Source: Acidobacteriota bacterium
Lineage (GTDB): Bacteria; Acidobacteriota; Terriglobia; Terriglobales; Acidobacteriaceae
Length of the DNA: 64,000 nucleotides
Assembly: GCA_021800255.1 (NCBI GenBank)
Contig: JAJYZC010000003.1
Coordinates: 44,475 to 108,474 of the forward strand
Direction: 5' to 3'
The stretch's first letter is position 1. The number at the start of each line of letters is the position of its first letter. The notes under the pieces are model-generated. The model was not told where the DNA came from, did not search any database, and was given only the letters and a program-made list of their open reading frames with translations. Positions 38,081 to 39,534 of this stretch are shown here, piece by piece. A program made the position numbers and the translations under genes.

Positions 38081-38806
38081 TTACGGAATGCCCAGCAACT
38101 TGTGCGTTTGCAGGCTGATGCGCCACTGTGGATGGTCGAGACAGTAGCGCAGCGCCAGTTGCGTGTTGCGCTCGCGGTCAGGCCCATCCATCGGCTGCAA
38201 GAAAAAATGCCGGAAGGCAAGGTCCGCAAAGGCTTCCGGCCCGGCGCCCGGCTGCGGATACACCAGCTTCAGTTCGTCGCCGCTGCGCTGCCGGAGTTCC
38301 GTTCCTGCTTTGGGGCTGACGCAAATCCAGTCCAGCCCGGCCGGCGCGACACAGGTTCCGTTCGTCTCTACGGCAATCTCAAAGCCGCGCCCATGCAGCG
38401 CGCCGATCAGGCTCGCATCGAGTTGCAGCAGAGGCTCGCCGCCGGTGCAGACGACGAATCGCCTCCGCGGCTTGTCCTCCTGAGTAGAGGCCGCTGTGGC
38501 GGCCGCAGTTGAAAGCCTGCTCTGGGCCAGCCGGAGGGGATCTGCGGTTGCTTTTCCGGGCTTGACTGGCGGCCATTTCTCTGCAATCGCCGCAGCCAAT
38601 TCCTTTGCGGTGGGGAACTTCCCGCCGCCCGGCCCGTTGGTATCGGCAAAATCCGTATCGCAGAATTGGCAGACGGCCGAGGCGCGATCCGCTTCACGCC
38701 CCGACCAGAGATTGCACCCGGCAAAGCGGCAGAACACTGCGGCGCGGCCGGTCTGCGCGCCTTCACCCTGCAGCGTATAGAAGATCTCTTTGACGGCGTA
38801 GCTCAT
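38081..38806 (-). CDS. queE: 7-carboxy-7-deazaguanine synthase (CX14CX2C radical SAM type)
   Basis: YAVKEIFYTLQGEG, CNLWSGREADRASAVCQFCDT, CTGGEPLLQL, ETNG, SLQTHK. Confidence 0.93.
   Translation of the reverse strand: MSYAVKEIFYTLQGEGAQTGRAAVFCRFAGCNLWSGREADRASAVCQFCDTDFADTNGPGGGKFPTAKELAAAIAEKWPPVKPGKATADPLRLAQSRLSTAAATAASTQEDKPRRRFVVCTGGEPLLQLDASLIGALHGRGFEIAVETNGTCVAPAGLDWICVSPKAGTELRQRSGDELKLVYPQPGAGPEAFADLAFRHFFLQPMDGPDRERNTQLALRYCLDHPQWRISLQTHKLLGIP
38474..38551 (+). repeat. Degenerate (T/C)GTC-tagged REP-like palindromic element inserted in frame in queE
   Basis: GTCCTCCTGAGTAGA-GGCCGC-TGTG-GCGGCC-GCAGTTGAAAG...GGGGATCTGC resembles recalled GTCATCCTGAGCG...GTCGAAGGATCT elements; coincides with an insertion of about 30 aa. 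Confidence 0.6.
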
Positions 38807-38881
38807 TCAGTTTCCGGCCCCTAGCACCGTGTCTTCGCAGATGAGGAATGGGGTCTGCTCTGGGCTTGTATGCGCATGAAA

Positions 38882-39075
38882 TTCCAATCGCTGGATGTAT
38901 CCATCCTCTAACTTCACCACGCCCCACATTCTTCCCGCAACGGCTTCAGGTTGCGGCTCCGAAGCAGCACGTGAACCCCGGCCGGAGAAACATGTTCGAC
39001 CAGCTTGCGCTTCACCGTCTCCGCGGCGATCAGCCGCACCGTTCACCACGCCGGGCCCGTTTTTGGGCAGCTCGC
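38882..39075 (-). mobile_element. Degenerate IS630-family transposase fragment
   Basis: Frames read W*TVRLIAAETVKRKLV..V.....HVLLRSRNLKPLRE, then MWGVVKLEDGYIQRLE; resembles IS630 RWTVRL...LKPWREK/MWCV.EL..EYI.RME across the frameshift site (recalled similarity). Confidence 0.65.
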
Positions 39076-39224
39076 AAAAGCTGAATTCGCAATCTGTTGC
39101 GCCATCCTATGCTTCTGCTATATCCCAACGCAACATGGCGGCAAAAGTACCTCCCTCGATTAAGTATCTATGAAGACACGGTACTCGTTCGTTGACCGCA
39201 TGAATTCGTTCCGGTTCGCGCTTT

Positions 39225-39255
39225 CCCAGTTCCCAAAGGGAACTTGGGGCACCCC
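39225..39255 (-). repeat. REP-like palindrome with GGTG foot
   Basis: CCCAGTTCCC-AAA-GGGAACTTGGG-GCACCC. Confidence 0.55.
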
Positions 39256-39380
39256 AATGGTGCAAAACAAGCGGTCAAAGACCTAGGTCCGGATGGGGAT
39301 CGGAATCCCAAATCAGCCGGGCAATAGGAGCAAATCCGCAGGTTCACTTTTGCCCAACCTTTATTCGGGCGGAACGCACA

Positions 39381-39407
39381 TCAAGAAGTTCTGTCCGGCG
39401 CCGATAA
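39381..39407 (+). promoter_or_regulatory. Sigma28 (FliA)-type promoter of the chemotaxis operon
   Basis: TCAA-N15-GCCGATAA (TCAAG 39381-39385, GCCGATAA 39400-39407), 127 nt before cheA. Confidence 0.8.
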
Positions 39408-39534
39408 GATACGCAGTCGCGTGCTCACTGCGCCCGCAGCCATCCGTTCCCAGATGAAGTTTGGCAGAAGGAGCCGGCGCTGCGAGGCTGGGAGAGCGCG
39501 CCAAGGAATTAAGCGGTTCCTGGAGTAAAAGCTC

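Follow-up and report, generated by a model that had tools for sequence, protein, structure and literature searches.

In-frame selfish palindromic repeats in essential-looking enzymes are best known from Rickettsia and from a few proteobacteria rich in repetitive extragenic palindromic (REP) sequences. Rickettsia palindromic elements (RPEs) occur in frame in genes that encode proteins (Ogata et al. 2000, as cited in PMC3733652), and REPs bearing a GTAG or CGTC tag encode extra residues where they fall within open reading frames (ORFs), these intragenic copies being biased toward genes of replication and repair (Di Nocera et al. 2013, PMC3733652). Acidobacteria are themselves known to contain TIRYTs and TIRtrons, in which long terminal inverted repeats stand on either side of a Y1 transposase (Di Nocera et al., PMC3733652). 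Here we describe a locus from a 64,000-nucleotide stretch of an Acidobacteriota genome (assembly GCA_021800255.1, contig JAJYZC010000003.1, positions 44,475 to 108,474; the window, whose first letter is position 1) in which the gene for 7-carboxy-7-deazaguanine synthase (QueE) carries 34 extra residues. These are very probably the antisense, in-frame translation of a non-coding hairpin repeat, which we call the A element, and the insertion appears to be old, mostly inherited and tolerated by its host enzyme.

The gene (38081..38806, minus strand) encodes an intact QueE of the Cx14CxxC type, identified by TIGR04508 (345.2 bits against a curated cut-off of 240, model positions 1-208 of 208), by similarity to the B. 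multivorans QueE of PDB entry 4njg (E=5e-81) and by its invariant residues. The cluster motif C31-x14-C46-xx-C49 and the stretch T121-G-G-E-P125 are invariant in a 41-sequence alignment that includes this protein, which retains every residue invariant among the 41 orthologues, C31, C46, C49 and the GGE motif included. The ORF of 241 aa is uninterrupted, with the frame kept and free of stops through the insert, and the AlphaFold model has a mean predicted local distance difference test (pLDDT) score of 84 with a core above 90. Judged from its sequence and this model, and with QueC encoded elsewhere in the genome, the host enzyme looks functional.

The insert proper comprises codons 81-114 (PVKPGKATADPLRLAQSRLSTAAATAASTQEDKPRR; 38465..38566, minus strand), between helix 67-77 and strand 116-121, its extent being defined by 4njg, the loops of orthologues and pLDDT. 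These 34 residues, estimated at about 30 in a preliminary description of this DNA, stand in place of three residues (101-103) of the 4njg chain, which aligns in two blocks that are collinear on both sides of the insert. We compared QueE from 80 genomes, drawn from this genus, from the rest of the Acidobacteriota and from a wide range of further phyla, and the loop from the conserved Trp to FVVCTGGEP measures 39 aa here as opposed to 8-13 aa in about 70 of the 80 orthologues; the long loop is missing from orthologues throughout the phylum and outside it. The peptide of the region includes the stretches EKWPPVKPGKATADP and TQEDKPRRRF. In the AlphaFold model the insert has pLDDT values of 49-70 and forms one weakly predicted helix, which suggests that it would sit in a flexible surface loop. 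Strand 116-121 ends in the GGE motif that binds S-adenosylmethionine (SAM), and this, by the topology of the radical-SAM barrel, would place the insert at the N-terminal end of the strand, on the barrel face opposite the Fe-S/SAM site. An element that arrived there in an orientation and frame without stop codons, with a length divisible by three and on the far face of the barrel would for these reasons be tolerated as a flexible surface excursion. The insert is presumably translated and presumably neutral.

On the opposite (plus) strand, antisense to QueE, positions 38473..38555 make up a degraded 'double-form' copy of an A-type hairpin repeat, delimited with nhmmer, pairwise alignments and the double forms at two loci fetched from relatives (L191 and L192; L numbers denote such loci, G numbers related genomes, and G000 the genome of the window). 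It begins with a 5' terminus TGTCCTCCTGAGT (38473..38485; family consensus TGTCATCCTGAGCG), with GTCCTCCTGAGT located from 38474, whose antisense encodes TQEDK where relatives have AQDD. Hairpin 1, GGCCGC-TGTG-GCGGCC (38489..38504), is evident in the sequence and in the centroid fold and represents the variable inner hairpin of the repeat, occupying the same place as in other family members. It is followed by an internal junction box GTTGAAAGCCTGCTCTGGGC (38508..38527; double-form consensus GTCGAAAGCCTGCCCTGAGC), with GTTGAAAG located from 38508, whose antisense encodes AQSRLST, and by the remnant of hairpin 2 with the 3' terminus CAGCCGGAGGGGATCTGC (38528..38545), which aligns to a copy on contig C84 and has GGGGATCTGC at 38536-38545. 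The copy closes with the conserved repeat tail GGTTGCTTTT (38546..38555), which with the preceding bases encodes GKATADP and recurs unchanged in intergenic copies, the one on contig C23 among them, and in the QueE copy of G012. All of the motifs quoted in the preliminary description, including the hairpin, are present where it placed them, and AQGRLST, from the reverse-frame reading that it gave, is found in relatives whose QueE insert has the double form. The adjoining stretch CCGGGCTTGACTGGCGG (38556..38573, plus strand) is possibly the remnant of a second, B-type hairpin repeat, an uncertain assignment that relies on a likeness to CCCGGGCTCGTCCGCCGCGG, found after the A element in the QueE gene of G012.

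The repeat origin of the insert is established by the wider family. The A element has the form TGTCATCCTGAGCG, a variable hairpin and GTCGAAGGATCTGCGGTTGCTTTT, with a size of 50-75 nt, and its copies fold alike, with an internal loop between a 5-bp closing stem P1 (ATCCT/AGGAT) and an inner hairpin that differs in sequence and length from copy to copy. An nhmmer profile built from 13 other A copies, with QueE left out, gave 19 matches at E<0.01 in this genome (host assembly 3.36 Mb), most of them outside long ORFs, and it found the QueE copy with E=0.0018 (19.9 bits, model positions 2-68 of 69). A loose pattern of the two termini matched 41 times in the genome versus 8 times in the reversed genome. 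In pairwise alignments the QueE copy matches a copy at C41:192 through its 5' 55 nt and the one at C84:8454 through its 3' 45 nt; both alignments score 43, where the null maximum over 2000 random genome segments was 27. The comparison by BLASTN that the preliminary description had proposed fared less well, as blastn-short of the insert against the genome yielded only short matches; the family is recognised instead through its termini and is recovered by the nhmmer profile.

Among 301 genomes of the phylum the exact pattern GTCATCCTGAGC-N15-45-GAAGGATCTGC is present in seven, six from two genera of the window's own family and one from a different family of the phylum. The highest count is 38, in G020; G125 has 10 and G161 has 7, with 0 in the reversed control everywhere, so that the intergenic repeat family suggested in the preliminary description does exist with exactly those ends. 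The A family is typical of Acidobacteriaceae such as Terracidiphilus, and we found no description of the element in the literature searched. The inner hairpins in G020, G125 and G161 are diverse yet self-complementary (TTTGGCCG/CGGCCAAA, TTTGCCGCG/TGCGGCAAA and TTTGGTGCG/CGCCAAAA). Such diversity is reminiscent of compensatory change in a structured element and is not explained by any simple copy-and-paste model. Rfam gave no match in the window at the gathering threshold and no match at E<=1 in 20 loci with A copies, ruling out the described RNA families, hammerheads included. An intrinsic terminator was also considered and rejected, the T-run lying 9 nt from the stem and the copies showing no consistent orientation to their neighbours. 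A search of a 5.8-billion protein database with the insert region of the G012 protein returned only the query itself and is uninformative because E-values at that database size are too harsh for a region of 52 aa.

QueE is not the only gene of this genome to be entered in frame. Two further genes contain strong, canonical A copies. In PriA the copy (C20:24882-24945), in the same orientation and frame as the QueE copy, reads KKTASDPSARLSLHESPARDDA and lies after the 3'-DNA-binding domain (residues 6-100) and ahead of the helicase (from residue 311). In an ABC-F ATPase the copy (C59:58809-58870) is read in the sense frame as TVILSDAARSAAQSKGLRLPFS and lies past the second ABC domain, ahead of the C-terminal coiled coil. 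In 13-14 relatives (13 examined for ABC-F) the corresponding linkers lack these copies. The PriA linkers of other species contain different repeat peptides of A, B or a third (C) type at different positions (ADLSVRL..VAQND in G043, ..SAQDD in G015, SGPGAPG in G009, SRPGPP in G018 and AMNGAQ in G006), and tolerant linkers have therefore been hit repeatedly. At C23:31115-31172 an A copy read in antisense (KKATADPSARLLRSLAQDDK) forms the last residues of a YbeY-like open frame, where the repeat may have supplied a C-terminal tail, unless the copy simply lies downstream of the true stop.

The site in QueE is shared with relatives. Three further genome-resolved species have repeat DNA at the same position: G012, in which a degenerate second hairpin repeat (B, of the form GGGTGCCCC-GGTCTC...GAGACC-GGGGCACCC) comes after a canonical A copy; G042 (locus L051), with A and an intact B; and G015, in which only TGTCAT and B remain. 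The canonical copies of G012 and G042, together with the nhmmer match, bear out the proposal in the preliminary description that the insert is an in-frame repeat copy. Both have the inner hairpin GTCCGCC-N4-GGCGGAC, an interior without a close copy elsewhere in either genome (one match with three mismatches in G012) and therefore shared by descent. In a large protein collection the long loop is found in 74 of the 120 best QueE homologues (71-78% identical), about 60 of which display the antisense frame as (K)ATADPST, a variable stretch, SAQDD, five residues and F, and in many homologues a B signature, PGLKxETWGT, stands N-terminal of the A peptide. Some inserts are double (ATADPHST...AQGRLST...SAQDD), and the G000 peptide KATADPLRLAQSRLSTAAATAASTQEDK is of this type.

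We fetched the DNA of eight additional carriers, and the distance from the start of the element to the Phe codon of FVVC is exactly 14 nt in 11 of 11 DNA sequences with an intact start (this QueE and ten others). The flank CTTCCTCAAAGGCC is common to several carrier lineages, and no target-site duplication is visible between filled and empty QueE sites. On a QueE tree calculated with the loop left out, the presence of the insert requires 12 changes against a mean of 37 for shuffled labels, with 0 of 500 shuffles as low, and the tree contains a large all-insert clade of 17 rows and another with the insert in 39 of 40 rows. The preliminary description had a selfish repeat landing in a surface loop of a radical SAM enzyme and keeping the frame; the repeat origin and the frame stand, and its picture of the event needs correction in that the insertion is old, common to many relatives and, as far as these sequences allow, mostly inherited. 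In the course of events that we propose, an ancestor of a large Terracidiphilus-like group would have received an A element in the loop before strand RFVVCTGGEP, perhaps accompanied in some lineages by a second hairpin repeat (B), and the insert would from then on have been passed down for the most part by inheritance.

Within this series the G000 copy is, from the sequences compared, the most degraded version, a double form minus its second hairpin at the decayed end. It is 0.61-0.65 identical to the other double forms, as opposed to 0.81-0.90 among relatives, and scores 19.9 bits with nhmmer as opposed to 37-51 bits for intergenic copies. Relative to L191 and L192 most of hairpin 2 is deleted, and both termini are changed (TGTCcTCCTGAGta; GGAGGGGATCTGC). 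The copy has also diverged from the family consensus. The suggestion that the repeat is 'now decaying' thus holds for the copy of this genome and fails for the conserved copies of its relatives.

The old passenger may not be neutral, and simple inheritance does not account for everything; the observations that weigh against this picture are considered here with the explanations they favour. The first set concerns conservation of the element at the nucleotide level. From one carrier lineage to another the A element retains an identity of 0.81-0.90, compared with 0.75-0.82 for the QueE core as a whole and 0.50-0.65 for its third codon positions. The third positions of the element match at 0.81-0.89, a level close to that of its first and second positions, and differ from those of the core (0.51-0.65) in each of six pairs (Fisher p 0.004-0.02; the pairs share phylogeny). 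The codons of the termini are near uniform and include rare A/T-ending ones (GCT CAG GAT GAC; GCA..CCT TCG ACT), while among the invariant-residue columns of the core one third base dominates in 26% and this base is A or T in only 4 of 124. G012 and G042 have the same hairpin stems and differ in the loop by two synonymous changes, and the residues directly N-terminal of the element vary freely. At the level of sequence this points to nucleotide-level constraint or homogenisation and not to selection on the peptide.

One explanation, which we regard as possible though rather unlikely, is that selection keeps the element as a nucleic-acid signal (a structured DNA or RNA, or a protein-binding site) or as a useful peptide, with G000 relaxed; this would add to the repeat origin and not replace it. 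However, the compared pairs share phylogeny and the element spans only 16-19 codons, and for these reasons we treat its conservation as a lead and not as a result. Several lineages and this genome have moreover lost or degraded the insert with QueE still intact, no Rfam family matches, and the fold energies of single copies are unremarkable, single A copies folding no significantly better than shuffles. Gene conversion from other genomic copies could also keep the termini uniform without any function; for the hairpin interior, conversion within the same genome was rejected, no close donor copy being present in G012 or G042. It is a tentative proposal that the embedded element is in most carriers either maintained as a nucleic-acid element or kept 'fresh' by precise excision and re-insertion. 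If true, it would account for synonymous positions and stems conserved well above the neutral rate of the host gene.

The second set of observations concerns the distribution of the insert. In an rpoB DNA tree the four genome-resolved carriers fall with three non-carriers in one well-supported clade of seven species, and a single clade of the four carriers is rejected (approximately unbiased test, p=0.0014), which speaks against simple vertical descent; the QueE protein alone does not reject such a clade (p=0.28), and the rpoB protein tree is a star in which the species are unresolved. Uninserted alleles with an ancestral-looking loop (WP.....GKRF) nest among inserted ones, contrary to a single origin, and their loops are unlike the joined flanks that a deletion would leave. 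The patchiness may be due to recombination between related species, to sorting of old polymorphism or to repeated precise loss and re-insertion.

The last of these would be expected if the QueE loop were a hot spot which the element has entered, left and re-entered, for example by means of a single-strand Y1 transposase (IS200/IS605-like, of RAYT/TIRYT type), a fixed target and precise excision accounting for both the patchy distribution and the fresh-looking termini. The interior hairpin types and the single and double forms are scattered over the QueE tree, and the PriA linker, with its A-, B- and C-type peptides at different positions in different species, likewise favours repeated entry. 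The genome also has three Y1_Tnp (IS200/IS605-like) transposase genes, one of which (C2:19727) lies between inverted repeats of about 40 nt (CCCGCTCATCGCAAAGAACGCGATGAACGGGGCAC) in a TIRtron-like unit at C2:19600-20540, followed by two B-type hairpins (..CCAGGCCCCAAAGTACGGGGGACCTGGGGCACCC), and acidobacterial TIRYTs are known (PMC3733652). Nevertheless, a single event would fit the 14-nt offset, which is the same throughout, and the related flank of several lineages; no donor for the interior that G012 and G042 share was found in either genome, no A copy flanks or adjoins any of the three Y1 genes of this genome, and no common target motif is seen ahead of the intergenic copies. Any tie between the A element and Y1 transposases is conjecture. 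Recombination between related species would account for the patchiness equally well, and we consider a hot spot improbable, more so than maintenance by selection. Lastly, growth of the loop in place by slippage or de novo with a coincidental likeness to the repeat, or mis-assembly of a repeat into the gene, could draw on the divergence of the G000 copy (19.9 bits) and on a fold energy of its hairpin region that is unexceptional and not above shuffles (z=-1.5), a further point against the repeat reading, but is effectively refuted by the match of both termini, the tail and the internal junction box to the A family, by undegraded copies at the same site in relatives and by the recurrence of the 241-aa protein and its DNA, both without a difference, on 16 contigs drawn from at least six independent assemblies, which also means that the insert is no assembly error.

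The surroundings of the gene provide some further observations. QueC, the usual upstream neighbour, has been lost from the QueE locus and is now found on another contig of this genome (C53), and the gap of about 730 nt between QueE and CheA (38807-39534) contains no convincing gene. Within this gap the stretch 38836-38870 (GAGGAATGGGGTCTGCTCTGGGCTTG) resembles the 3' end of an A element and may be the remnant of a further copy. In the window QueE and a TrmO-like gene are adjacent and convergent; two metagenomic relatives have an HNH endonuclease gene between the two (L193 1740-2408 and L195 1710-2372). In L019 (genome G001, 1227-1866) QueE is frameshifted at VVCTGG/GEP, as a pseudogene or through a sequencing error.

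An old, inherited and tolerated insertion of this kind shows the process known from Rickettsia at work in free-living, high-GC soil Acidobacteriaceae, with three in-frame copies in one genome (QueE, PriA and the ABC-F ATPase) and with one copy persistent in the QueE loop across a large radiation. A-type repeats account for many odd loop insertions in acidobacterial annotations and are probably also behind spurious small ORFs in them (VILSEAKDL, AQDD and ATADPS peptides). The QueE series comprises dozens of naturally occurring variants (single, double, with or without the B hairpin, decayed and empty), and is well suited for asking how foreign sequence is accommodated in a protein loop and whether a repeat lodged in a gene is maintained as a nucleotide sequence.

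Among the known systems, MITE-like elements (miniature inverted-repeat transposable elements; NEMIS/Correia, ERIC and RUP) resemble the A element in being small, non-autonomous and structured and in lying in or next to coding sequence, but the A element is smaller, lacks inverted repeats of 15-30 bp (having only the 5-bp ATCCT/AGGAT) and leaves no target-site duplication that we could see. With the intragenic GTAG and CGTC REPs it has in common a stem-loop inside ORFs, one of them in a gene for repair and replication, PriA. REP stems within one genome are usually not variable between copies, whereas those of the A element vary in sequence, and canonical A copies have no tag at the stem, reading ...CCTGAGCG(R)AG-stem. 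GTAG occurs only in the mutated G000 copy of QueE (GAGTAGAGG), and a GTAG-type REP nested in the element was therefore rejected, this GTAG being a mutation private to G000. In contrast to a REPtron, no Y1 or RAYT gene is flanked by A copies, one Y1 gene having unrelated 40-nt inverted repeats and B hairpins; the likeness to TIRtrons lies in this unit on contig C2 and in the B-type hairpins that accompany A in the QueE genes of relatives.

The closest parallel is with RPEs, a comparison already made in the preliminary description and, in our judgement, an apt one. Like an RPE the A element is a short palindromic repeat in many copies, both intergenic and in frame in genes for functional-looking proteins, where it lies outside the catalytic core and at orthologous sites common to related species. 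It differs in belonging to an unrelated sequence family, in its host, a free-living soil acidobacterium with a high-GC genome, and in having conserved ends around a hypervariable inner hairpin. Conservation of the embedded copy at synonymous sites in relatives may be another difference. The A element thus works like an RPE and belongs to a different repeat family.

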